From: Porphyridium purpureum
Lineage: Eukaryota
Assembly (NCBI GenBank): GCA_008690995.1
Contig: VRMN01000008.1
Coordinates: 558,001-622,000 of the forward strand
Reading direction: 5' to 3'
DNA length: 64,000 nucleotides
Shown: piece after piece, positions 9,633-33,292 of the stretch
Numbering within the stretch: position 1 is the first letter of the stretch
Layout of the letters: every line of letters starts with the position of its first letter
The notes under the pieces: model-generated
Seen by the model: the letters and a program-made list of their open reading frames with translations, nothing else
What the model was told of the DNA's origin: nothing
The model's database searches: none
Position numbers and translations under genes: made by a program

Positions 9633-12600
9633 TCAGACGACGCACCAACCATGGCGTTGCTTTTGGAACGAGTCGACTGCGAGATTCTTCGTCAAACCGT
9701 CTGCAAGATTGTCTTTGCTGTTCACGTGCACGAAGTCTGCCAGGCCGTCCTTGGACACTTCGTTCAGCCATTTCAGGCTGATTTTCTGCATCTTGTGAAG
9801 ATGCAACATCTTGTCGCTCCATCCCTTGTTGATCGCGTTTAGCGCGGTCTCATTGTCGACATACATGGCCACCTTTGGCCATGCATTGTGCCATTCTTCG
9901 ATAAACACGCCCAGCGGAAAGACACGATACTGCACTGCTGTATGTGCAGCGATCAGTTCCGCCTCGGCGGTTGAGGTCGCGGTCCGGCGTTGCCGCCCAC
10001 TTGACCAGTCCACAAGGTGTCTCGTATTCTTACCAACAAAGAAAGTGCACACGCCGCTAGTCGACCTCTCTGCGCTGAAGTCTGCGTCAGTATAACAAGA
10101 TACAGACACAGGCAAGGCCCTGCCGGCACCCGAAAGAGGTGGCACGCGAAACACCAACACCGCATCGGCACTGCCCTGCAGGTACCGCATGATGTCGTTC
10201 AGGCCCTTTTCGGCTTCTTCACCCCAGCGATCCGTGCAGCGCGCTACCGTACCAACTGCGAATGCCAGATCTGGCCTGGTTGTCCGAACCAGCCACAAAA
10301 TACGCCCCAAGGTGCGTCTCACGCTCTTGTCACAGACCTCGCCATCTCTGTCGGGCTCAGGCTTACAAGACATCGGAGTCTTTCGCGCCTGCCTCTCTTG
10401 ACCGTCTGCTAGCATATGCCGTGCATACTCTCGTGAACTCATCACCCAGGCACCGTCCATGTCTTTGTCGACATAGAACCCGATGCCCAGGAACCGCACA
10501 GGGTTTTCTTTTGTCGCTTCGCGCATGTATTCAACCGCGCGGGTGATGGAGAACTCCTTTTTCATCTCCGCAACCGCCTCCCGTATTGCCCCACTGTCAC
10601 CGAAAACCGCCCCATCATCAACGTATAGGACTGTCCATTCCGTCTTACCCAGACGCTTTCTCCAGTATACGTTCTTATCTGAGGCGGATTCTTTCCAACC
10701 CAGACCTTCAAGTCTTGACCGTGCGTGAGCTCCAAAGTCGCTTCCGCTGCGTGGCAAGCCATACAGCGCCATGGGCAGCCTGACGACGGGCCTCTCCATG
10801 GCTTCGAGCTTTGACGACAGACTGGACGGTATGCAACCTCTCAACCAGCGAGTAAGACCGGCTAATTCGACGAATGTCGGAGGACCCCCGAGGGGCGCGT
10901 GTACGTATGCGTTGTCCACGTCGAAGAACGCAGCGTCAGCGTGTTCTCCGTGCTCCAACAGCGCTGCGCTTAATGCGGCCCTGATGGCTACTAAACCAGG
11001 CGGCTTCTCCCAATCAAATGGGTTCACAACCAGGGTTCCGGTTGCGTCTCTAACCACGCACCCTTGACACACAAGTCGGCACTTGTGTTTCCACGCGCTG
11101 GGCCCTAGTTCGGCATTTTTGATTCCGAACACGGCCTTCAGCTTCACAAACTGTGCGTGCGGCGTTCGCGTCGCCGTTCTGCGCTCGACCGCTTTCTCCA
11201 GCGGAAGCGCGCCGACGCTTCTCAACGCGGTCAACTCGCGGACAAAAGCATCGCGACCGGCACTCGAGGCCATGGCACTCTTGGATTCGATCACCTGCGT
11301 TACCAGCAGCTCTTGAACTAAGGCCGTCGCTCCGGCAAGAGGCACGCTGACCTTCTCTGCCCGCGCCGACACCCCTTTTTCCGCAACTTCTACGAACTTC
11401 ACCCTCGCGCGCCGCAAGGCCCCGCTCCTCCCGCGCCTGTGTTCGCCAAGACCTTGGGCTTGTGAGCCGAGCAATCCGAGCGCCTGCGCTTTCGAGCGCA
11501 CGTCTTTCGCTGTTTTACCAGCCAAGGCGGCCTTACTCTCTTTGATAATTTGCGACCACTTTGGACCCAGTCGTGTGAAGCCGCCCGAAATAGCCGCAAT
11601 TTGCTCGCTGCTCCACGAGCCCTTTCGCGATCGACCGTCTACTGTCGCGAGCGGCCCCGTCGGAGGCGCTTCTGTTCCGTTTGCACGTACGCATTCTTTG
11701 AAACCTGTTTCAATCTCATTACTTTTCTCTCTTGGGTCGGCCGGCGTCTCGGTTTCCGAGGTCTCGCCGGTCTCGTCGCTCTTATCATTCCTACCGCTTC
11801 CAGGGTACTGCTGCCCCTCGTCGTCAGCAACTGGTTTAGGGTCCGGCGGGCGGGCGAATTCTTCTTCAACGGGCCTGAGCTGTTTTCTTACGACGGGATA
11901 CTTTTCTTTGAGCAGTTTCCATTCTTGTACCCATCGCGCCGCTGCCGGCCTCATATCTGAAACAGGGATCACCAGGCAATTCAGTCGTTGTTTGATGACT
12001 GCTGATTCTGGTATCCGAAAACCGACCACGATTGCGACAGAGCCCTTCGGTTCATTCTTGTCGGAAGCCTCGTCGTAAACTACGACGCCCCGGCCAAACG
12101 CAGGCAGCTCCAATTTCCATTTAGTATTGAATCGTTTCTCGTACGCGGTGGCACCGCCTCCGCGCCCAGCCCAAACGAGATTTCGAGCATCCGCCCAATA
12201 CCGAGCCGCGAAGCAGAACCATGACGATGGCAACCCGGACTGGATCAGAAGCGCCCTCACCGTCGCATTCATGTCCCTGTGAAGCCTCTCTTGACTGGCA
12301 TGCGTGTTTGAACGCCTCGCTATGCCCTTTTCGTGGGCAACCAGGTGGTCTCGGAGCATGTCTTCGAAAACACCTCCAAATTCTCCGCCGCCATCGCTTT
12401 TCACCAGCCGAGGCCAACCGCGGCCCCGCTGTATCTCTCGAAACGCGAACGAGGCCGTGTCGGCGAGTTTATTCCTCAGGCCCGTCACAGAGACCCAGCC
12501 CGTTCCGATGTCTTTGTGTACCAGAACCCATCTCGTCCCATCCACACCAACCGAGGAGGGGTCCACGAGATCAATGGAGACGGCCTCATTAAAGCCGATG

Positions 12601-14225
12601 ATTGCATTGGAGTCACTCTCTTTGCGACGCACCGCGCGCACTCTCTGTATTTTGCCCAGGGCACAAATCCCACAATCTTCCTTCGCAGGCATATGCAAAA
12701 GGTCGTGGTCTAGAACCCTCACCGGCTCTGTGGCTCTAATTGGCTCATTGGGCTTCTCATTGATTTTCTCCGCATCCGTGCTGAGTAGTTCCATGCCTCC
12801 CACGGACAAATGCGCCTTCTGCGCCCTCAGCCAGTCCAGGCCCACTATGAGCTCGTGACGCGCTCTGTGTACCACCGCGGACAACTTTGCATCCCGAGCC
12901 CCATGCATTCTCAACGTCAGGCGCGCGGTCCCTTCGGGCCTGCACATGGTACCATCCGCCAAGCGAACTCCTCCCACGGCAGCGCGCCGGTCCACCGCCA
13001 CACCAATTTTCTCACAGAAAGCGAGCGAAGCATATGTGTTCGTCGCGCCTGTATCAAACACTGCGTCGACTTGGTGACCATTCACCCACATTTTTCTCTT
13101 CACAAGCCTCTCGACTTTTGGTCTGGTGCTCGCAGTGAGTAGTTCCAGCTCAGCCGCCTGTGCGGCGAGCTCCGGGCAATCCTTTTTCCAATGCCCTATG
13201 CGTTTGCAGTTGGCGCATTGATCCTTTTTCAGACCATCTCTCCTCCCGCTGTCCCGAGCCTTCCACTTCTTTCGACCACTCTTTCTTTTACCGCCGCTGC
13301 CAGCACCTACGCTTTTCCCGCCGCGCTCAGCGGAGCCCAGCTCCATGGGAGCCGGTCCGTCCCCGTAGGGCGTCTGCCCTTTCTTGGCAGTCCGGGCGCG
13401 TTCCGGGTGCATGATGGCATCGATCTCCGAAGCTACGCGGATAACTTCTTCCAAGCTGGATGTGCCCTTAAGTTCGGTTTGCACCCTAATGTCCTTGTCA
13501 AGCCCTCGCTTGTACTTGTCGAACAATTCAGACTCTGTGGCGTCTTCAATGCGCAGACAGAGCGAGGAGAAAGTATTTGTATACTCTTCCACGCTCGTGC
13601 CATTCTGCTCCAACGCGAACAGCTCATCTCTAGCCCGAGCGCCTGGGTTCACCGGGGCGAACCGCATCTCGAGCGCGGCTAGAAATGCTTCAACCGTGAA
13701 CGGCTGCTCCCTCAGGCGAATCCACCACAACTGCGCGTCATCCGTCAGGAACCCAGCGAGGTTTCGAACGACCCTCTTTTCGGCTGCGTCGTCCCAAGAT
13801 TCGCCAACCGCCGCGACTTCGTCCTTGTACGGCTCAACCACTCGGTCGCGAGCCGCCGAAATCCACGTCAGGATCTTTACTAGGTCTCTTTTCCCGTCAT
13901 ACGCCGGCATACGTGCAGGTTCAAGCAACTTTCGCCGCTGATGAACCACCTGCCCCGCGCCCGCGGACGCCAAAGCCGATCGCGCTGCTCTTTCGTGCGC
14001 CAAATCGCTCTCCAGACCCTCAATGCGCTGCTGTGCCATGCGTAAGTCGGCGGATAATTCCGCTCTCACCCTGGCCATCAACATGTCAAACTCGGTCGGC
14101 GATGGACCAGCCTGTGCATTGCCTTGCGTACCTCCACCCTGCTGCAGAGGTTGTGCTTCCAACGATTGCTGTCTCGCTGCCATAATTGCGCGCAGACGTG
14201 ACTGCTCCTGCTCACGGTCGTCCAT
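9633..14225 (-). CDS. Gag-PR-IN-(Myb/SANT-like)-RT-RNase H polyprotein
   Basis: CCHC knuckle CANCKRIGHWKKDC; protease FDTGA; HHCC HDLLH..CGIC; DDE (SIDL, KSDGGGEF, QER); Copia RT (KCRLVCQG, DVDNAY, LYGL, YVDD); RNase H (YTDADF, STAEAE, VDNE, NLADGLTK). Confidence 0.95.
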   Translation of the reverse strand: MDDREQEQSRLRAIMAARQQSLEAQPLQQGGGTQGNAQAGPSPTEFDMLMARVRAELSADLRMAQQRIEGLESDLAHERAARSALASAGAGQVVHQRRKLLEPARMPAYDGKRDLVKILTWISAARDRVVEPYKDEVAAVGESWDDAAEKRVVRNLAGFLTDDAQLWWIRLREQPFTVEAFLAALEMRFAPVNPGARARDELFALEQNGTSVEEYTNTFSSLCLRIEDATESELFDKYKRGLDKDIRVQTELKGTSSLEEVIRVASEIDAIMHPERARTAKKGQTPYGDGPAPMELGSAERGGKSVGAGSGGKRKSGRKKWKARDSGRRDGLKKDQCANCKRIGHWKKDCPELAAQAAELELLTASTRPKVERLVKRKMWVNGHQVDAVFDTGATNTYASLAFCEKIGVAVDRRAAVGGVRLADGTMCRPEGTARLTLRMHGARDAKLSAVVHRARHELIVGLDWLRAQKAHLSVGGMELLSTDAEKINEKPNEPIRATEPVRVLDHDLLHMPAKEDCGICALGKIQRVRAVRRKESDSNAIIGFNEAVSIDLVDPSSVGVDGTRWVLVHKDIGTGWVSVTGLRNKLADTASFAFREIQRGRGWPRLVKSDGGGEFGGVFEDMLRDHLVAHEKGIARRSNTHASQERLHRDMNATVRALLIQSGLPSSWFCFAARYWADARNLVWAGRGGGATAYEKRFNTKWKLELPAFGRGVVVYDEASDKNEPKGSVAIVVGFRIPESAVIKQRLNCLVIPVSDMRPAAARWVQEWKLLKEKYPVVRKQLRPVEEEFARPPDPKPVADDEGQQYPGSGRNDKSDETGETSETETPADPREKSNEIETGFKECVRANGTEAPPTGPLATVDGRSRKGSWSSEQIAAISGGFTRLGPKWSQIIKESKAALAGKTAKDVRSKAQALGLLGSQAQGLGEHRRGRSGALRRARVKFVEVAEKGVSARAEKVSVPLAGATALVQELLVTQVIESKSAMASSAGRDAFVRELTALRSVGALPLEKAVERRTATRTPHAQFVKLKAVFGIKNAELGPSAWKHKCRLVCQGCVVRDATGTLVVNPFDWEKPPGLVAIRAALSAALLEHGEHADAAFFDVDNAYVHAPLGGPPTFVELAGLTRWLRGCIPSSLSSKLEAMERPVVRLPMALYGLPRSGSDFGAHARSRLEGLGWKESASDKNVYWRKRLGKTEWTVLYVDDGAVFGDSGAIREAVAEMKKEFSITRAVEYMREATKENPVRFLGIGFYVDKDMDGAWVMSSREYARHMLADGQERQARKTPMSCKPEPDRDGEVCDKSVRRTLGRILWLVRTTRPDLAFAVGTVARCTDRWGEEAEKGLNDIMRYLQGSADAVLVFRVPPLSGAGRALPVSVSCYTDADFSAERSTSGVCTFFVGKNTRHLVDWSSGRQRRTATSTAEAELIAAHTAVQYRVFPLGVFIEEWHNAWPKVAMYVDNETALNAINKGWSDKMLHLHKMQKISLKWLNEVSKDGLADFVHVNSKDNLADGLTKNLAVDSFQKQRHGWCVV

Positions 14226-23953: not shown

Positions 23954-24512
23954 AACCTTTCTGGTGCACTGTCATTTTTTCTCACAGTGCTACCCGGCGA
24001 GCTGGAGAACACGGGGCGACAGTCTATATAAAGGCGTGGAGACCCGCGAGCAGGCTCGGGGACAGAAAGGAAGAAGAGAGAGAGGTAGCGAAAGGGAGAG
24101 AAGAAGGAGAGGGAAAGTAAAAGGAAAAGGAGGTTCATAACAACTACGTGTGTTTGCTGCGAGCGTGTAGACGAGCGAGCGCCTCCAGCCTTAAGCTGTT
24201 GCTGTTTGCGGTACCCTTTGGGCATCGTGACGAAAGATAGATGATAGTACCGGCGAACTGCTCGCGTAGAGTAAAGGTAGCAATTGGTACGCAGAAGTCT
24301 CCTTTACGGACGGATTTGTTTGCTGTTTTGATTTGAAATCCCCTTAAGGAAGGGAGAGAGACGGAGTGACGAGGTCTACGGAGTGGAGTGAGCTGGCTTA
24401 TATAGGCTGAGCTGACAAAAGCCTACATATTCAATACAGGGTGGAAGCACGTTGTGAGTAGCAGCGCCGCGCTGGCACATTGCAAAAACGGCTCACTAAC
24501 GACTCATATGAC

Positions 24513-24790
24513 TGCTGTGTACTACACCCGCAGCCACTACAACCCCTCTCTCACCTACAGGCACCCGCCCGGATCGAACCCCGACACCAACGGCACACCA
24601 ACCTCTCCTCGCACTTCGGTACCTCCTTTACTTTTCGTTTAGCTCGGGCCGCACGGCGGCGTGGATTATATACTGCCGCAAAGCCCTGGATCTAACTCAG
24701 TGGTGGGTTTGGATGGGGTTTTGGAGGGTGGACTGTACTATGGAGTACAGGTGCTACATGTGTACAGTGCATGGGGTGTACAGCATAGCA
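24513..24790 (-). repeat. 3' LTR of the Gypsy element
   Basis: Direct repeat of 30913-31190 (offset 6400); TATATAA on the minus strand at 24666-24672. Confidence 0.95.
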
Positions 24791-24803
24791 CATCTCCCCC
24801 ACC
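24791..24803 (-). other. Polypurine tract of the Gypsy element
   Basis: Minus strand GGTGGGGGAGATG abuts the 3' LTR. Confidence 0.8.
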
Positions 24804-25379
24804 GCCTCAACCGCTTGTGCGCGCTCGGGGACCGGGAAGAGAGGAAAGGGAGGCTGGCTAGCCCGGAGGAAAACCACGCGGGAAACCGGGCAAAGGGGTC
24901 GCGGAAAACGACCGCCGGCCAGCCCCAAACAAGCAAAAAATATTGTGAACGACGGAAAACCCATGCGACCCGGGTGTACGCGGCGGCGTCTTTGTACCTC
25001 TTTTCCGTGAGTTTTCGGTTTTCTGGTGCCGACTCCAGACGAGCACATTCCGGTGATCCAAGGTTCCGAGATAGAGGTGCAGGCTCAAGCAACACTCAAG
25101 AGGAGTTGATTGAAGCCTTTTCCCGCGAGGGAGGGCGCTTGCGGAAACCTCGGCGATATGCAACATTTGCCGACCCACCATGAACAGAAATTCCTGATTT
25201 GCGGCCAAACGACGCGGCGAAAGTGCGCGAAATGCAATATTGTAACCTAGATGAGGCCCACGAAGCCAGTCATCACCAAAGCAGAGCTTCTCTCGCCCTG
25301 GAACCTCCAGACACTCGTTGCTCATCCGTTGACACCGCCTGCCTCTCAACACCATATCCTCACTGTACCCACCCTGTGA

Positions 25380-25535
25380 GCCGATACGCCGATACGCCGA
25401 TACGCCGATACGCCGATACGGATAAACGGATAAACGGATAAACGGATAAACGGATAAACGGATAAACGGATAAACGGATAAACGGATAAACGGATAAACG
25501 GATAAACGGATAAACGGATAAACGGATAAACGGAT
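25380..25535 (+). repeat. Compound octamer array (GCCGATAC)x5 + (GGATAAAC)x14 in the Gypsy 3' UTR
   Basis: Directly counted tandem units. Confidence 0.95.
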
Positions 25536-25632
25536 GAGCCTCCGCCTTTCTCACAGTCGAAGGTCGGGAAGGATAGAGAGGCAGCGCGAAAGGAGGCCGA
25601 GGCTCTTGCCACACGCCGGCGGCCCGGACCGA

Positions 25633-28600
25633 CTATAGAAAGCTCTCGCCCGACGTGGATCGCAATGCAGTGCCGCGGTGCAAGCTGCCGCGGTTGAACG
25701 CCCACACAAGGGCCGGCGGCAGGGCAGAGGAACTTTCCCACGTCCAGTCCTTCTTCCTTGCCCCCTTCCAAGCCACAAGATACTCGGCCCCGTCGCTCCG
25801 TTCGCGCCTGGCTTTCAGACCTGACACCTCAACGATGTCACCGTCGGCGTTTCCCAGGCTGGTCGAGCGCAATGTATCGTTGCTCAGTAGCGCTCGGTCC
25901 ACTCTCTTCAGCCGTCGGCGATGCACGAAGAATTCTTTGCCGTCATGCGTCTTGAGCCATGCGCGATGCTCGTCAGCACGCTCAACTTCAAAAGGGCCTA
26001 CCCAAGGGTCCGCCAGCTTTCGGCCCTCCCTGCCCAGCGGCGGCTTCCAAACGAACACACAGTCCCCCGGTTCAACGTCAACAATTCGACATGACGCGTT
26101 AAGCTCTCGACGTCGGGCGTCCCGGGTGGCATCATTTTCAACTACTGCGTTGTGCAAGGCCTCGAGCCTGTTGCGCAACAGAATCACAAAGGCGTCCTCC
26201 TTTCTTGCGCTGTCTTGTGGCGCTACTTCCCCTTCGGCGGCCGGGTTGAAGGGTCCCAGCCATGAATTGGCCTCTCGTCCGAACATGAGCTCGTAAGGCG
26301 TCCTCTGCGTCGTGCTGTGTCTAGTCTGGTTGAACGCGGCCACACAGGCAGGCAACCACAAATCCCAATCGTCCTCCGTGACCCACGAAGAAAGCATGTC
26401 GCAGAGTGTCCTGTTAAAGCGTTCGACCGCCCCGTTGGCTTGTGGGTTGTACGCTGTCGTAAACAGCTTTCTAACGCGCAGCATCTTGCATAACTGGCGT
26501 AGAACATCGGCTCGGAAACAGGGCCCGTTGTCGCTCAGAAGAGCTTCCGGTAGGCCAAAGATTGCAGCCCAACGATCCAAAAAAGCCTCGGCAATGGTCT
26601 CTGCCCGCTCGTCTCGCACACATATTGCTATGGTGAACCGAGTGAAAAGGTCGCTCACTACCAGGATTTTTGAATATCCAGTGCTTGTTCTCGGCGTTAC
26701 CGTTAAAACGTCCGCAGCAACGACCTCGAACCGCCGGGTAACGACCCGCTTTCCCATGCGGTGGCTTGTGACAGGGGTCGGTGAGCCCTTTCGCGCGGCG
26801 CAAGTTCTACATTGCTTTACGAACTCCAAGACGTCTTGCAGCCAGCCAGGCCACCAAAACTCCGCGTCGGATATACGTGCCGCCGTCTTGGACACTCCGA
26901 AATGCCCGCTGAAAGGTGCTGAGTGGTAGACATCTAAAATACTGCCCACTAGTCCATCAGGGACTACCTTGCGCGGTTTGTCTTTCAGCGCGGCCCACGC
27001 AAGTCCACTTTCGTCCAGATAGTACTCCGGATAGGAATATACTCGTGGGGACTTTTGCAATGCCGCGAGCTCTTTCGATAGCAGCTCGTCCTCCCTGTAC
27101 GCTGCCTTGAGCCTCTCCGGAGATGGGAGCTCGTAGCCCACGGCTTGACCAATCGCGTGCGGATCATCTTCATCTGTCGGTACTGCAGAATCCTCTGCGA
27201 CGGGATCTCGTCGCGCACGCGTGCGCACTGCGTTCAGTTCGAGACGTGACAGTGCGTCCGGCACTCGATTCAAGCGGCCTTTAACATGCTCGATGGTAAA
27301 CGAAAAGTCCTGAATTGTCAGTGCCCAGCGCGCCAGCCTTCCTCTTGGCTCTTTCATGGACAGGAGCCAACGGAGAGGTTCATGGTCAGTGCGAATGCGT
27401 ACGGTTGTGCCGAAAACATAGTGTCGTACCTTTTTGAGACACCAAACTACTGCAAGGCACTCCAGCTCGGTGACCGTATAATTTTGCTCCGCCGACGTCA
27501 AAGTCCGCGACAAAAAAGAGATTGGCGCAAGCTTCCCGTCCGGCATCTCCTGATACAACGCACCGCCCAGTCCTATCTGAGAGGCGTCGGTGTCGAGAAC
27601 CTTTGGCGCGTTCGGATCCGCCAACACCAGCATCACTTTGTCCGACGTGAGCACCTCTTTGAATCCGTCGAAAGCGCAGCGCGCGTCTTCCCCAAAGCGT
27701 GCCTGCCAGCCGGCGCACTCTAGATCTGTATTGCGGTGTGCCTTCTTTGCATTGACGTCCAAGCCATCCAGCGCTCTCCGGAGCGGCGCCGCGCGATCCG
27801 AGAACCTGGGTATGAAGTCCCTGAACCAATTCACAAGCCCTAAGAAACGCAGCAGCTCTGTTGGGCCCTTAGGGTAAGGCCACTTGAGAATGGCTGCCGT
27901 ACTTTTTCCCCCCGGCCGAATGCGGCCTTCTTCCACTTCATGTCCCAGGAAACTGAGCCTTGCCGTAGCGAATTTGCACTTTTGCAGGGAAAATGTCATG
28001 TTCTCTTCCTGGAACTTGCTTAGCACTACGTCTAGGACCTCCAAATGTTTTTCTATCGTTTTGGTCCCTGTCAACATATCGTCTAGGTACATCAGGATGT
28101 GTTTCCATCGAAGCGACCCAAGTATCGTGTTCACAAGTCTCTGGAAGGTAGCGGGCGAGTTTCGGAGGCCCTGTGCAAGGACTGTGTAGCGGAACAGTCC
28201 CTCCGCCGTTATCATACCGGTGAAGTCCCGCGAGGACTCCGCGAGGGGAACTTGGAAGAAACCGTCAGCCAGGTCCATCACAGAGAAGACTCCACACGGG
28301 AGGAAGCGTCCCATCCAATCTAAGCATTCGCGCACGTCAGGGATTGGGTATCTATCTGGAACGGTGTGGCTGTTCAATTGGCGGAAATCCGTAGTCAGCC
28401 GCCACTTACCGTTTGGCTTTCGAATGATAACGTTCGCGCTGGCATATGGGCCCGAGCAAGGCTCGAGGATGCCCAAAGATAATAAACGCTGGACTAGCGT
28501 GCTCTCGGCCTCTCTTTCAACTTCAGACAATCTACGCAGGCGGGCCGGGGTAAGACGTGCGCCTGGATCAATAGCAATGGAGTGCTCAGTAGACCGTGTG

Positions 28601-29430
28601 CGACCTGGACGGTCCCGGAACACCCTCCAGTGCTTGAGCAACACCGCCCGAAGACCACTTTGGTGAAGCACGTCTACGTGGCTGAGGTCTACATCCATAA
28701 TGCGAGCACGCGTCTCCTCTTCGTCCTCTTGCATTACGTTTGGACTCCCGAGCTTACTTGCGTCTCTTTGCTCTACCCCAACGCAATCAATTAAGTTCAG
28801 TGATTTTGCAGGCGCTCCCTCTAAGAGGCGAATCGTGGCGCCGTCTTTCATTTCGAGCTCGCCCTTGCCAAAGGAAAGCGCGTTAGCATTAGCAACCCAG
28901 AAATCCCATCCCAGGATAAGATCTTCGATAAGATCTTCGGCAACTAATGCGCGCACCTGGTACATTGACTGGCCAATTTGTAGCTGAAGCTCTGATGCTC
29001 CGACAATACCGAGGGAGCTTCCGCCTGCAGTTCGACACTCCTGCGCCACGTCCTGTATTACGGCTCCTAGAGAACTGACCCACTTTGCTCGCGCATATAC
29101 ACCGGCAATCCCTACAGCACCCGTGTCGGCAAGAGCATCTACGGCAGATCCCGAGACCTTGACAGGCGTGCGACCCGATCGCATGACACGTGCTTTGGCC
29201 AACACGCGCACGTACGGGACTCTGCCAGAAGCAGATTCCACCAGATGGTTTAAGACTTCCAAGGTTGGACTCGCTCGCAGGATTCGCTTCGGCCCTAGAG
29301 CTAGATCATCAATCACGGAACTTGTTCGAATTTCGGTGTTCTCTTCACCTACGCTGGGCTTGCGATATCCCAACGCTTCCATGGCCTCATCCACGGCCCT
29401 CCCATTCCACGCTACCACGCGTCCGCGTAG
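25633..29430 (-). CDS. Gypsy Pol (PR-RT-RNase H-IN-chromodomain), in frame with gag behind a UGA
   Basis: LADTGA; DLADGFFQV; YLDD; DTDAS...ELECLAV; H..GH..C..C; SDNG; ERFNRTL; GPF; chromodomain EYLVAWKG..DWTWE (about 25693-25836). Confidence 0.93.
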   Translation of the reverse strand, partial: LRGRVVAWNGRAVDEAMEALGYRKPSVGEENTEIRTSSVIDDLALGPKRILRASPTLEVLNHLVESASGRVPYVRVLAKARVMRSGRTPVKVSGSAVDALADTGAVGIAGVYARAKWVSSLGAVIQDVAQECRTAGGSSLGIVGASELQLQIGQSMYQVRALVAEDLIEDLILGWDFWVANANALSFGKGELEMKDGATIRLLEGAPAKSLNLIDCVGVEQRDASKLGSPNVMQEDEEETRARIMDVDLSHVDVLHQSGLRAVLLKHWRVFRDRPGRTRSTEHSIAIDPGARLTPARLRRLSEVEREAESTLVQRLLSLGILEPCSGPYASANVIIRKPNGKWRLTTDFRQLNSHTVPDRYPIPDVRECLDWMGRFLPCGVFSVMDLADGFFQVPLAESSRDFTGMITAEGLFRYTVLAQGLRNSPATFQRLVNTILGSLRWKHILMYLDDMLTGTKTIEKHLEVLDVVLSKFQEENMTFSLQKCKFATARLSFLGHEVEEGRIRPGGKSTAAILKWPYPKGPTELLRFLGLVNWFRDFIPRFSDRAAPLRRALDGLDVNAKKAHRNTDLECAGWQARFGEDARCAFDGFKEVLTSDKVMLVLADPNAPKVLDTDASQIGLGGALYQEMPDGKLAPISFLSRTLTSAEQNYTVTELECLAVVWCLKKVRHYVFGTTVRIRTDHEPLRWLLSMKEPRGRLARWALTIQDFSFTIEHVKGRLNRVPDALSRLELNAVRTRARRDPVAEDSAVPTDEDDPHAIGQAVGYELPSPERLKAAYREDELLSKELAALQKSPRVYSYPEYYLDESGLAWAALKDKPRKVVPDGLVGSILDVYHSAPFSGHFGVSKTAARISDAEFWWPGWLQDVLEFVKQCRTCAARKGSPTPVTSHRMGKRVVTRRFEVVAADVLTVTPRTSTGYSKILVVSDLFTRFTIAICVRDERAETIAEAFLDRWAAIFGLPEALLSDNGPCFRADVLRQLCKMLRVRKLFTTAYNPQANGAVERFNRTLCDMLSSWVTEDDWDLWLPACVAAFNQTRHSTTQRTPYELMFGREANSWLGPFNPAAEGEVAPQDSARKEDAFVILLRNRLEALHNAVVENDATRDARRRELNASCRIVDVEPGDCVFVWKPPLGREGRKLADPWVGPFEVERADEHRAWLKTHDGKEFFVHRRRLKRVDRALLSNDTLRSTSLGNADGDIVEVSGLKARRERSDGAEYLVAWKGARKKDWTWESSSALPPALVWAFNRGSLHRGTALRSTSGESFL

Positions 29431-30642
29431 TCACTCGCTCGCAGGCGCCGCCGAGGTAGCTCTGCGCACCGGTGCTGGCGCCAGGCAGTCTCCGGCATAG
29501 TGTCCTGTCCCTTGGCAGCGGCGACACACCACTCGATCCGAGTTGGCCATTAAACGGTTCCCCCCGATTCCGGGCACGCCCAAAACGGCTGCCACCCGGT
29601 CCGCCAGGAACTCCACTTCGATCAACTTTTGATCCTCTGTCTCCTTCGCCGGGTCAGGAGGTACACCCCCAAGATTTGGTTCGGAATCATGAAGTACATT
29701 GACCGCAGCCCCCGGTGGACGGAAAACCGGTCTCCCTTGGGCAAAGCTTCGTCCCTTCTCCAGTGTCGACCCGTAGTTTTTCTCCAACGGTAAAATCATT
29801 CCGAAGAATGTTTCTGTGGCAGCGTGGAGACGACCCATCTGTTGAATATCTCGAGGAAGTCCTCGAACAAAGTCGCTCTTCATCGACGCCTCGGATTTCC
29901 CAAGAGCAGCGCCGAGCTCGTACACGGCGCGGTGATAGTTTGCCACTGACTCGCCCTTCGTCCATTTCCTCTCGCAGTACTCTTGTTCCACAGATTCCAA
30001 AAGCTGAGGAGACCAGAAAACCGAACGCGCCCACGCCCAACGCTGCTGAGCCGAGTACTCCGTCGCAAGCTCGCCGTTCTTCTCGGCAGTGCGATAAACC
30101 TGCTCAGCCGAATCCGCAAAAGCTAGAACCACAAACTTTGCCGTGAGGTCGGCTGGAATGTGGCGACATGCTTCCACCCAGGTCAAATACGTGGTTTCGA
30201 ACCTGAGATCACGCGCGTGACGGATGCGACAGTCTTTCATCTCGAGAATGACCGACCTCTTCATTTCTTGCTCGAGTTTGATGAGCCGGAGCTCCTCAGT
30301 GGACATTGTCAACAGGCTCGAACCATCAGAGACCGCCAGTGCAGTCCCGATTCTGGACGCGCGGCTGGGCTCCCCCGGTGGCTCGGCACCATGTTCGGCG
30401 GATCTTGGCCGAGAACCGCGATCCTGCGCGTCCGCAATCGTCGGTTCGTCCAGCTGCGGTCCGAGACGCTGAAAGATCATCTCCATTCTCTGACGTATCT
30501 GGTCAATGCTTTCGCGCAGCTGCTCCTGGCCGGATGCGATCAGCTCTACACGTCCCTGGAGTGCCGCCACATCAGCCGTGACGCTCGCTACAGTTGGACG
30601 CCCGGCCATTTCCCCCAAGATATCCGACAGGCGTCCGGACAT
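29431..30642 (-). CDS. Gypsy Gag
   Basis: 403 aa; N-terminal coiled coil, GESVANY...FVRGLP capsid-like motif, CCHC knuckle CRRCQGTGHYAGDC. Confidence 0.88.
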   Translation of the reverse strand: MSGRLSDILGEMAGRPTVASVTADVAALQGRVELIASGQEQLRESIDQIRQRMEMIFQRLGPQLDEPTIADAQDRGSRPRSAEHGAEPPGEPSRASRIGTALAVSDGSSLLTMSTEELRLIKLEQEMKRSVILEMKDCRIRHARDLRFETTYLTWVEACRHIPADLTAKFVVLAFADSAEQVYRTAEKNGELATEYSAQQRWAWARSVFWSPQLLESVEQEYCERKWTKGESVANYHRAVYELGAALGKSEASMKSDFVRGLPRDIQQMGRLHAATETFFGMILPLEKNYGSTLEKGRSFAQGRPVFRPPGAAVNVLHDSEPNLGGVPPDPAKETEDQKLIEVEFLADRVAAVLGVPGIGGNRLMANSDRVVCRRCQGTGHYAGDCLAPAPVRRATSAAPASE

Positions 30643-30912
30643 AAATCAGATAATCAGTCAGTCCCTAGAAATCAAACGCAAAAGTGTGCAATGCGTGTGC
30701 TGAAGCCACCCGGCTTCCCACACAAGTTCAAAAAACCAAACAGAACTATCTTTTCAAAGCCACCCGACTTCAAACGAGACACCAGAGCCACCCGACCTGG
30801 CACCTCTCCCCCACGTCGCCCTGGTTCCGGGCCACCCGACCACCAACCAGACCGGCCCGCGCGCTCCCACAAGAAATTACTCAAGAATGGGGCAACGCTA
30901 ATTCTAGAATTA

Positions 30913-31190
30913 TGCTGTGTACTACACCCGCAGCCACTACAACCCCTCTCTCACCTACAGGCACCCGCCCGGATCGAACCCCGACACCAACGGCACACCA
31001 ACCTCTCCTCGCACTTCGGTACCTCCTTTACTTTTCGTTTAGCTCGGGCCGCACGGCGGCGTGGATTATATACTGCCGCAAAGCCCTGGATCTAACTCAG
31101 TGGTGGGTTTGGATGGGGTTTTGGAGGGTGGACTGTACTATGGAGTACAGGTGCTACATGTGTACAGTGCATGGGGTGTACAGCATAGCA
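30913..31190 (-). repeat. 5' LTR of the Gypsy element
   Basis: Direct repeat of 24513-24790. Confidence 0.95.
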
Positions 31191-33292
31191 TGACTAGAAA
31201 TTGTGCTCACTGTAAAAATCAACAAGACGCCAGCTCTGCTCACAACTTACGTTGTAAGCTTCTCCTTGGTCTCCGAAGGGTCTGTGTCTTGTGTGTCCAC
31301 CGGGACTCGTTGGTCCGACGTAAGTGAGTCTGGCGTTGACAGTGCACGAAAGTCAATCACATCCTTTAAAAGGGAACTTGGTACACGCCGCTGGTTCCGA
31401 AAGCTTTAAACTCCAGTGCTCTGCACACAGTGCTTGCAAAGGGCCCAAGCCTTACAGCGACACGATGCCTGGAGTGAAATGAGCGACCTAATCGTGTCGA
31501 AACGTGTGATAGTGGCGCGAAGCAGTTCCAGCGCAATACTTTGTCAATCCTGCATTTGGAGCGGACAGCACAGTATAATCTGGAAGGAACAGCTATTTTT
31601 GGAAACTAGCTTGAACACGCGCACCCGTGCACGTGTCGCGGGTCCAACGTCTTTGCACCGTGTCCCCCACCTGCAATGTCGTCCACACCTCGCGTCACGT
31701 ATAAAGGCGAGCACCTAAAGGCGAAGGAACTAGATTGACACGAGGACCGGAACAGGTAGAGTAAATGTTTTGTGTGTTAAAGAATATACATTCTGTGACT
31801 TCTGTTGTTCGGGAGAGAACAGATATCACCTCACGCTTCCCACCTCACTGGCACGCTTGTTGAGAGACTCGCAGACCAGGGGTGAGGCGGCGGATCATTT
31901 ACTCTCTGTTGGAAATCAAAACCGGTTACCTTTGACAAATCGCTCTGCAATGACTATGTGCTAGTGTGGTAGCACAGAGCAAGCCACAGCGGGCGGAAGC
32001 GTGTCTCCGCCCTGCAAGGGCATGAATATTAGCGAAACTGTAACGTAAACACGCGAAAGAGCGGCTTCAGCCTGTGTTTGGTTTGCTCGTGGTCGAGCGC
32101 GCGTCTCTGCGCTACGAGCCTTGAAGATGGGCGCTGAAGTTGGCGTTTCGGCATTGTGCGTACGTAGGCTGAGGCAGAAAGAGACAGCACGGCAGATCGA
32201 ATGAAAGGAAGCGGATGTTCCGTTGATTGGGGGCAACAAAGATGTCGGTACAACTTTATATTACAGCAAGCAGATGTGCGTGTGTGTCTGAGAGATGCGC
32301 CGCTGCCTGAGGAGTGAGTTTGGCGAGATCAAAGGTCTATGTACTAGCGGCTGTCATCTGAAGGGTTTATCGCAATCTAGTTCTGTCGGGTAAAGCGTGG
32401 TCGTGATTAGTTTGGCGACAGGCTGGCCAATAAAGACTTGGTTACAAGCGCAAGACTCCTCCTGTATATTTGGACGGTCCAGGATTAGCTGCAAGACGCC
32501 AGGCGCTCGGTGAGACGGTTTCATCCACAAAAGTGGGTCAAAGCCAAGACGCGCCCATGCAGCGCAGGAAGAGCGTCGCGATTGTCGAAGAACTTTAGCA
32601 TTCTCGGGCACTCGGCGTTTGTGCACACCCTCAATGAAGCCACACGAAGGCGTTCGCCAGCAAGAATACCGCGCGTGCTTTGACGTTGACGCCTTGTTGG
32701 ATCCCGCAAGACGTACAGTGATGCACGAAACCACAAATCAAGAAACGCTACTCAGAGAGAAAAAGGCGCAACCAAGTGGGTAAAGGGGGTTGGTAGCAAG
32801 GACACAAGGTAGCGGGTGCGAAGGAGGAGTTTCGTTGCGCTTTGTTGGAGAAAGGTGAAGACAGGGGCGACGCAGCAGAGCGACGCAGCAGAGCGACGCA
32901 GCACAGCGACACCCAGGCACTGCGTGGAACGGAGGCGGACACAGAGACACGCAGCACGGATTGGCAACGGCACGCGCCGGGTGATAGCGGGTGTGTCTCT
33001 GTGTGAGTTTGTGTGAGTGGGCGAGGCATGTGGCTGCGCTGATGGTTTGATTGGTGCGACAAGCGGGTTTGGTTCGTGTTTTGGTGCTGACGCGGGTCGC
33101 GCGGCGCTGCTGGTAGAAGGTGGGGTGTGGTGCGTGGCCGCGTGGGGAGCGGGGAGAGAGAGAGAGAGGCGCAGGAGAGGGCTGAGGATGAGTGAAAATG
33201 CGCGCGTGGCAACGGCGGGAGCGGCGCGCGCAGAGCGCTGGTGGCCGCGCTGGCGGCCGCATCGCCAAAGAGAAGAGAGGGAGGTGGCGCGG

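Follow-up and report, generated by a model that had tools for sequence, protein, structure and literature searches.

A single in-frame UGA-CUA between gag and pol in an intact Ty3/Gypsy retrotransposon of Porphyridium purpureum: a probable site of stop-codon readthrough

The retrotransposon described here lies in a 64,000-nucleotide stretch of the genome of the red alga Porphyridium purpureum (assembly GCA_008690995.1, contig VRMN01000008.1, positions 558,001 to 622,000), referred to below as the window and numbered from its first letter. The window has a G+C content of about 56%, with host open reading frames (ORFs) that are long and intron-free, and it carries on the minus strand, at 24513-31190, one copy only of a complete Ty3/Gypsy long terminal repeat (LTR) retrotransposon of 6,678 bp. 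Its features are listed from the 5' end of the element.

31191..31194, minus strand: target-site duplication GTCA, upstream copy, read directly
30913..31190, minus strand: 5' LTR, 278 nt, TG..CA, with an internal TATATAA box, 100% identical to the 3' LTR
29434..30642, minus strand: gag ORF, 403 amino acids (aa), named from its position and C-terminal CCHC knuckle, without a Pfam capsid match
29488..29529, minus strand: CCHC zinc knuckle CRRCQGTGHYAGDC, gag residues 372-385, zf-CCHC E 0.015, which is sub-cut-off
29431..29433, minus strand: single in-frame TGA between gag and pol, unchanged in contigs of the public runs X9, X10, X11, X12 and X14
29428..29430, minus strand: CTA codon directly after the TGA, context UGA-CUA-C, the same context as in the relative L029
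25636..29430, minus strand: pol frame, 1,265 codons, closed by TAG at 25633-25635
29382..29384, minus strand: earliest ATG in frame with pol (codon 17, context GCCATGG), 47 nt past the stop
28900..29166, minus strand: aspartic protease domain (Asp_protease_2), pol residues 89-177, DTG, PF13650 E 7.8e-7
27934..28425, minus strand: reverse transcriptase (RT) domain (RVT_1), PF00078 E 3.5e-29
27304..27618, minus strand: RNase H domain (RT_RNaseH), PF17917 E 1.8e-37
26443..26964, minus strand: integrase zinc-binding and core domains, PF17921 (Integrase_H2C2) and PF00665 (rve)
25717..25812, minus strand: chromodomain-like C-terminal stretch, borderline PF00385 match (23.3 bits, cut-off 25.1)
24513..24790, minus strand: 3' LTR, 278 nt, TG..CA ends, 100% identical to the 5' LTR
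24509..24512, minus strand: target-site duplication GTCA, downstream copy, read directly

The pol domains follow the order protease, RT, RNase H and integrase, with every Pfam match except that of the chromodomain above its cut-off, and the motif YLVAWKG..WTWE is visible in the chromodomain-like tail. The element is intact, recently copied and chromovirus-like. Gag ends in an exact CX2CX4HX4C knuckle, with 18 residues between the knuckle and the stop, and matches no Pfam family significantly. An AlphaFold model of gag, made from the single sequence with no alignment, reached a predicted local distance difference test score (pLDDT) of 38 and was too poor for a fold search. When gag was compared by BLASTP with the gag part of P0014, a related protein of the same alga, protease alone aligned and no gag similarity was seen, and a gag homologue search in the 221-706 aa size range gave no match, a result that is uninformative as gag sequences cluster under a pol-model representative.

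On the minus strand the junction reads GCG AGC GAG TGA CTA CGC GGA CGC GTG GTA, and inspection of the strand and its ORFs bears out the sequence-only reading, made earlier by a model from the letters and ORFs of this stretch, that gag and pol are in one frame and split only by TGA-CTA. As that reading also stated, the frame stays open through pol to 25633 (1,265 codons, with TAG at 25635-25633), and the in-frame ATG that it had placed about 50 nt downstream lies 47 nt past the stop, at 29384-29382. TGA closes four Pfam-supported host ORFs of the window and is therefore an ordinary, unreassigned stop codon here.

We consider it likely, from the arrangement of the two frames and the context of the stop, that this single in-frame UGA is passed by programmed stop-codon readthrough. 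For most ribosomes translation would end at the UGA, with Gag alone as the product, whilst a small share would insert the amino acid of a near-cognate tRNA and continue into protease, RT, RNase H and integrase, so that little Gag-Pol fusion would be made relative to Gag. In other eukaryotes the near-cognate insertion at UGA is of Trp, Cys or Arg. The signal would probably be the short local context (GAG, UGA, CUA-C) rather than a downstream structure.

The relatives of the element offer one line of evidence. A homologue search with gag-X-pol(1-790) against 1.84 billion representatives identified, in addition to the pol model of the element itself, P0003 (52% identical, a pol-only protein from a single Logan contig) and P0014 (44% identical), which stands for a family of the same alga with gag and pol in a single ORF of 1,608 aa. 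A metagenome contig scan gave a further 80 loci at 25-53% identity, whose gag/pol borders were classified by script; 49 of the 80 were unclassifiable owing to insufficient upstream sequence or an interrupted pol. Among the 31 classifiable loci, 24 reach pol by a -1 shift from the gag frame (20 of these with a knuckle), five are single ORFs, one has a +1 overlap and one, L029, has an in-frame stop, which agrees with the earlier statement that readthrough-type junctions are uncommon among such elements. Some of the '-1' loci, near-copies of single-ORF rows in the tree described below, may be decayed copies. A scan of IMG/VR with the pol alignment gave 40 pattern matches, none of which was confirmed.

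In L029, the pol of which is 28% identical to that of the window element, a CCHC-gag running ...CFGCGTRGHVRSEC...NAKGG is followed by TGA CTA CCA, and a DTG protease lies 25 codons on in the same frame, with a single Met between the stop and DTG, 10 residues ahead of the catalytic Asp. As a control, all single in-frame stops between ORFs of at least 100 and at least 400 aa were collected from the 80 loci and the window. There were six such stops, two of them at the gag/pol border (window and L029), both in the form TGACTAC-N11-GTAGCG. The remaining stops all fall within pol, three of them in recognisable RT/RNase H, and look like decay; in no case do the preceding 150 aa contain a knuckle, and the base after the stop is never C.

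The similarity between the two border stops extends to the 12 residues past the stop, where five of 12 are shared in register (LRGRVVAWNGRA in the window element, LPKSEVAINGAC in L029), a match equalled by 262 of 856,636 background 12-mers. In both elements these 12 codons precede the first in-frame ATG, and the similarity therefore suggests that they are translated. In a quick maximum-likelihood tree, the window element pairs with P0003 (Shimodaira-Hasegawa-like approximate likelihood ratio test, SH-aLRT, 99), joined next by P0014/P0061 and after them by L002, an element with a -1 frame. L029 falls outside that clade on a long branch, and the two junctions are therefore either homologous or convergent.

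It is conceivable, though we hold it as a doubtful proposal, that the extended cassette of the window element and L029 (UGA-CUA-C, 11 nt, GUAGCG; L-x4-V-A-x-N-G in the protein) represents an ancient, structure-free chromovirus readthrough signal, with the abundant RNA of run X11 described below perhaps a separate product of the same region. Such a cassette could reach beyond the known UGA-CUA tetra- to hexanucleotide, and could perhaps be common to the group of the fission-yeast element Tj1.

Two observations concern the junctions of other relatives. Some copies of the sister family (P0014, P0160, P0165, P0167) are split into 432 aa and 1,188 aa where the frame changes, about 20 residues past the knuckle and once more at the gag/pol border; the 432-aa form occurs in two sources. 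At L007:1126-1134, where gag is in the -1 frame, a GAG TGA CTA CCA stop opens the pol frame 61 nt before the end of gag, which may be chance.

Near-identical copies of the family provide a second line of evidence. Cluster look-ups found 403-aa gag proteins ending ...APASE in three variants, namely P0151 (four contigs), P0152 (two accessions) and P0154 (one), together with a truncated gag model, P0155. The pol models P0001 (four accessions), P0153, P0168 and P0172 start at MEALGY, the first ATG past the stop. When contigs of eight public runs were compared with the element at 25640-30910, the junction was bridged in five (X9, X10, X11, X12 and X14, under three organism labels), with stop and CTA unchanged in each; the contigs of the remaining three do not bridge it. 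Single runs leave parts of the element uncovered by contigs, to which we attach no significance. The near-identical copies that share the stop are >99% alike, and the TGA was already present while the family multiplied. An alignment of copies had been proposed as a check on the sequence-only reading, and TGA-CTA is identical in all near-identical copies seen; that several of them inherit the TGA upholds the view that the stop is no private decay mutation. No sense-codon protein across the junction was found at 917-2,921 aa in a collection of 5.8 billion proteins, where two clusters matched, both of them ATG-started pol models. The layout explains why public models of the family are inconsistent, in which gag and pol are called apart, an internal ATG is taken as the start of pol, or the stop is removed by an invented intron.

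Junctions of this kind have been described before. According to the accessible text of PMC10085805, gag and pol are separated by an in-frame TGA in the chromoviruses Tosmo1-3, Tcry1 and Tj1, Ty3/Gypsy elements of fission yeasts; this TGA lies within an 8-bp GAA TGA CT(A/G) that is strictly conserved among them and that the authors read as a signal for programmed readthrough. Tj1 is active, and removal of its stop abolishes transposition, as given in the accessible part of PMC4600332. These two sources support the earlier description of UGA-CUA as a leaky context: fission-yeast Ty3/Gypsy elements conserve it, and transposition there depends on the stop. PMC10085805, in its accessible text, describes the context as permissive and cites Li and Rice 1993, Stiebler 2014 and Loughran 2014 for UGA followed by C, CU or CUA acting without large structure, and Gao et al. 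2003 and Leng et al. 1998 for further cases. The novelty implied by the sequence-only reading does not hold, as this junction type is already published for chromoviruses; both layout and local motif are described for related elements, and what is unexpected is only the extended motif shared with L029 and the abundant truncated RNA. The fission-yeast elements resemble the present one in having one frame, a single TGA then CT(A/G) and a Glu codon before the stop; their integrase has a chromodomain-type tail, for which the present element gives a borderline match. In Tj1 the LTRs are likewise identical, pol lacks a starting AUG, and transposition needs the stop. They differ in host (fungus versus red alga) and in the codon before the stop (GAA versus GAG), and self-priming, which Tj1 uses, was not found here, where no test for it was made.

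Murine leukemia virus (MuLV), a gammaretrovirus, likewise has an in-frame stop between gag and pol and makes a low-ratio Gag-Pol fusion by readthrough. The MuLV signal consists of UAG-G and a pseudoknot that lies about 8 nt further on, whereas here the stop context is UGA-CUA and no structure stands out at that spacing. The UGA-CUA(G) contexts of alphaviruses, some plant viruses and cellular genes belong to RNA viruses or cellular genes, and the base after CUA is G there and C here. Tca2 (pCal) of Candida albicans also has a single in-frame UGA, with Pol made from the gag-pol RNA, but it belongs to the Ty1/Copia superfamily and has a minor promoter in its junction. The accessible part of PMC2194720 reports that Tca2 Pol is translated from gag-UGA-pol RNA and that the flanks alone gave no readthrough in Saccharomyces cerevisiae.

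No literature on such a junction in red algae or in Porphyridium was found at the level of titles and abstracts. With this element a red alga joins the organisms in which an in-frame UGA-CUA divides gag from pol in Ty3/Gypsy elements, and the rare layout recurs, in the same context, in the distant relative L029. Since the UGA-CUA-C site is compact and apparently structure-free, and its element young, probably active and resident in a culturable microalga, it may serve as a convenient natural readthrough reporter. General knowledge of how retroelements express Pol is unchanged.

The sequence-only reading had drawn attention to a short GC-rich hairpin right after the stop, at the following position.

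29414..29431, minus strand: predicted 7-bp hairpin ACUACGC-GGAC-GCGUGGU, loop GGAC, -9.8 kcal/mol

The stem itself stands as a prediction, and its window ranks among the top 1% of all 24-nt windows in the coding RNA of the element, but a role as stimulator is unsupported. The 5' end of the hairpin is the third base (A) of the UGA. Known readthrough stimulators start about 8 nt past the stop, and by the geometry of the ribosome a stem reaching into the stop codon would be melted when the UGA is in the A site. At the same position in L029 the predicted energy is -3.2 kcal/mol (17th percentile), with no comparable stem. Given its start within the stop codon and the lack of a counterpart in L029, the hairpin is unlikely to act as the stimulator, and we take it to be real but probably incidental. 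Windows beginning 3-12 nt past the stop have percentiles of 0.14-0.57, longer downstream windows 0.06-0.57, and the fold of 137 nt is unremarkable (z = -1.27).

Several points weigh against readthrough. The case for it is drawn from layout and context, and the agreement among copies that are >99% alike shows inheritance, not long-term selection. No significant structure of the MuLV type was found downstream of the stop at the usual spacing of about 8 nt. Close relatives differ in their junctions, P0014 being a single ORF and L002 having a -1 frame. Public annotation begins pol at the in-frame ATG, which is in a strong GCCATGG context, and the first Met of the pol-only protein P0003 aligns within about three residues of Met17 of the window element, an alignment that would also fit a conserved internal start. 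In a reporter, the flanks of the Tca2 gag UGA did not drive readthrough (PMC2194720, accessible part), and therefore an in-frame UGA alone is no proof of canonical readthrough.

The alternative that Pol is made apart from Gag, by initiation at the AUG at 29384-29382 on a full-length or internally started RNA, with the UGA simply ending gag, we regard as unlikely. The AUG at 29384 is in a GCCAUGG context 86 codons ahead of DTG, so that a complete protease would still be made; all public pol models begin at it, and P0003 has its first Met aligned close to it. An internally started RNA has a precedent in Tca2, with its minor promoter in the gag-pol junction (PMC2194720, accessible part), and a possible counterpart in run X11, where an abundant, RNA-like contig has its 5' side near 29525, upstream of the stop.

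27980..29525, minus strand: abundant X11 contig, 1,566 nt, depth 605 against 4.1 in the adjoining contig, with no difference from the element

This contig carries a 20-nt non-templated A tail after 27980 (20 T on the plus strand), where the genome has four A only, which points to an abundant, prematurely polyadenylated RNA that begins about 90 nt before the gag stop. The tail lies inside RT, and three out-of-frame AUGs (at about 29500, 29406 and 29390) stand between 29525 and the in-frame AUG. As three AUGs precede it, one of them in a strong context, scanning would rarely reach the fourth; with the A tail inside RT and the out-of-frame AUGs ahead of the in-frame one, the X11 RNA cannot encode Pol. 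The 12 codons from stop to AUG, moreover, resemble those of L029, in which the only Met between stop and DTG is the one 10 residues before the catalytic Asp. In most retroelements, free Pol would also be without its usual Gag-mediated route into particles.

That the TGA is a nonsense mutation of a defective lineage, with Pol supplied in trans or the lineage no longer mobile, seems very improbable. The copies seen are nearly identical, so that one mutated master could have founded them all, and decay-type in-frame stops do exist in relatives, as at the four control loci. The stop, however, falls exactly at the gag/pol border, 18 residues past the knuckle and in the leakiest known context, and pol is fully open in every copy seen. 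The layout is repeated in L029, and a border TGA with CT context is common to the fission-yeast elements (PMC10085805, accessible text). No sense-codon helper copy was found in the same search of 5.8 billion proteins at 917-2,921 aa, and the LTRs are identical and the target duplication intact.

Splicing of a 144-nt in-frame intron from some transcripts, which would remove the knuckle and the TGA and fuse Gag to Pol, is the least credible of the alternatives and is hardly to be expected. The stretch concerned is the following.

29412..29555, minus strand: 144-nt GT..AG stretch, removed as an intron in the public model P0156 with the frame kept; coordinates derived from the junction sequence

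The proposal has in its favour that P0156 (1,621 aa) joins ...GIGGN to PWNGRAV..., exactly matching this GT..AG stretch, the length of which is a multiple of three. P0156 is, however, the only model with the 144-nt joint of those listed for the family, the others calling gag and pol apart. The usual donor is GTRAGT, and the GTTTAA found here is far from that consensus. No spliced joint was seen in the contigs of the eight runs, and although contigs drop rare forms and are not proof of absence, those of X9, X11, X12 and X14 cross the 144-nt stretch unspliced. The same annotation also places a domain-destroying gap of 38 aa in the RT of P0001, P0168 and P0172, and because this gap destroys the domain its introns look like artefacts.

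In these three gene models the deletion of 38 RT residues corresponds to an in-frame GT..AG 'intron' at 27903-28016, and the P0172 model is in addition fused to the gag of another element. The in-frame 'introns' of the public models (27903-28016 and 29412-29555) and the P0172 fusion are likely annotation artefacts.

Two further candidates were rejected. A selenocysteine reading of the UGA finds no selenocysteine insertion sequence (SECIS) match, and the context and position fit gag termination; the 23-nt GT..AG stretch around the stop (GTGAC...GGTAG) is very short for an intron and its length is not a multiple of three.

Some further features of the element lie outside the coding frames. A perfect 14-nt palindrome, TAATTCTAGAATTA, stands at 30899-30912 on the minus strand, directly past the 5' LTR and at the position expected for the tRNA primer-binding site, and no TGG-type primer-binding site is found near it. 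Both LTRs contain GGTTCGATCCG (30966-30976 and 24566-24576), which resembles a tRNA T-arm or B-box; an ARAGORN scan of the window for tRNAs gave 0 genes, and Rfam gave 0 matches in the element at E up to 1. About 840 nt of non-pol sequence separate the pol stop from the 3' LTR. This interval includes a 165-codon ORF at 24858-25355, which has no Pfam match, and two perfect 8-nt tandem arrays at 25380..25535 on the minus strand, GCCGATAC repeated 5.1 times and ACGGATAA repeated 14.8 times.

Elsewhere in the window, at 9633-14225 on the minus strand, lies a second, unrelated retroelement-like ORF of 1,530 aa. Its single frame covers Retrotrans_gag and a Ty3 capsid together with a CCHC knuckle and an aspartic protease, and its sole reverse transcriptase match is faint (RVT_2, E 0.001).

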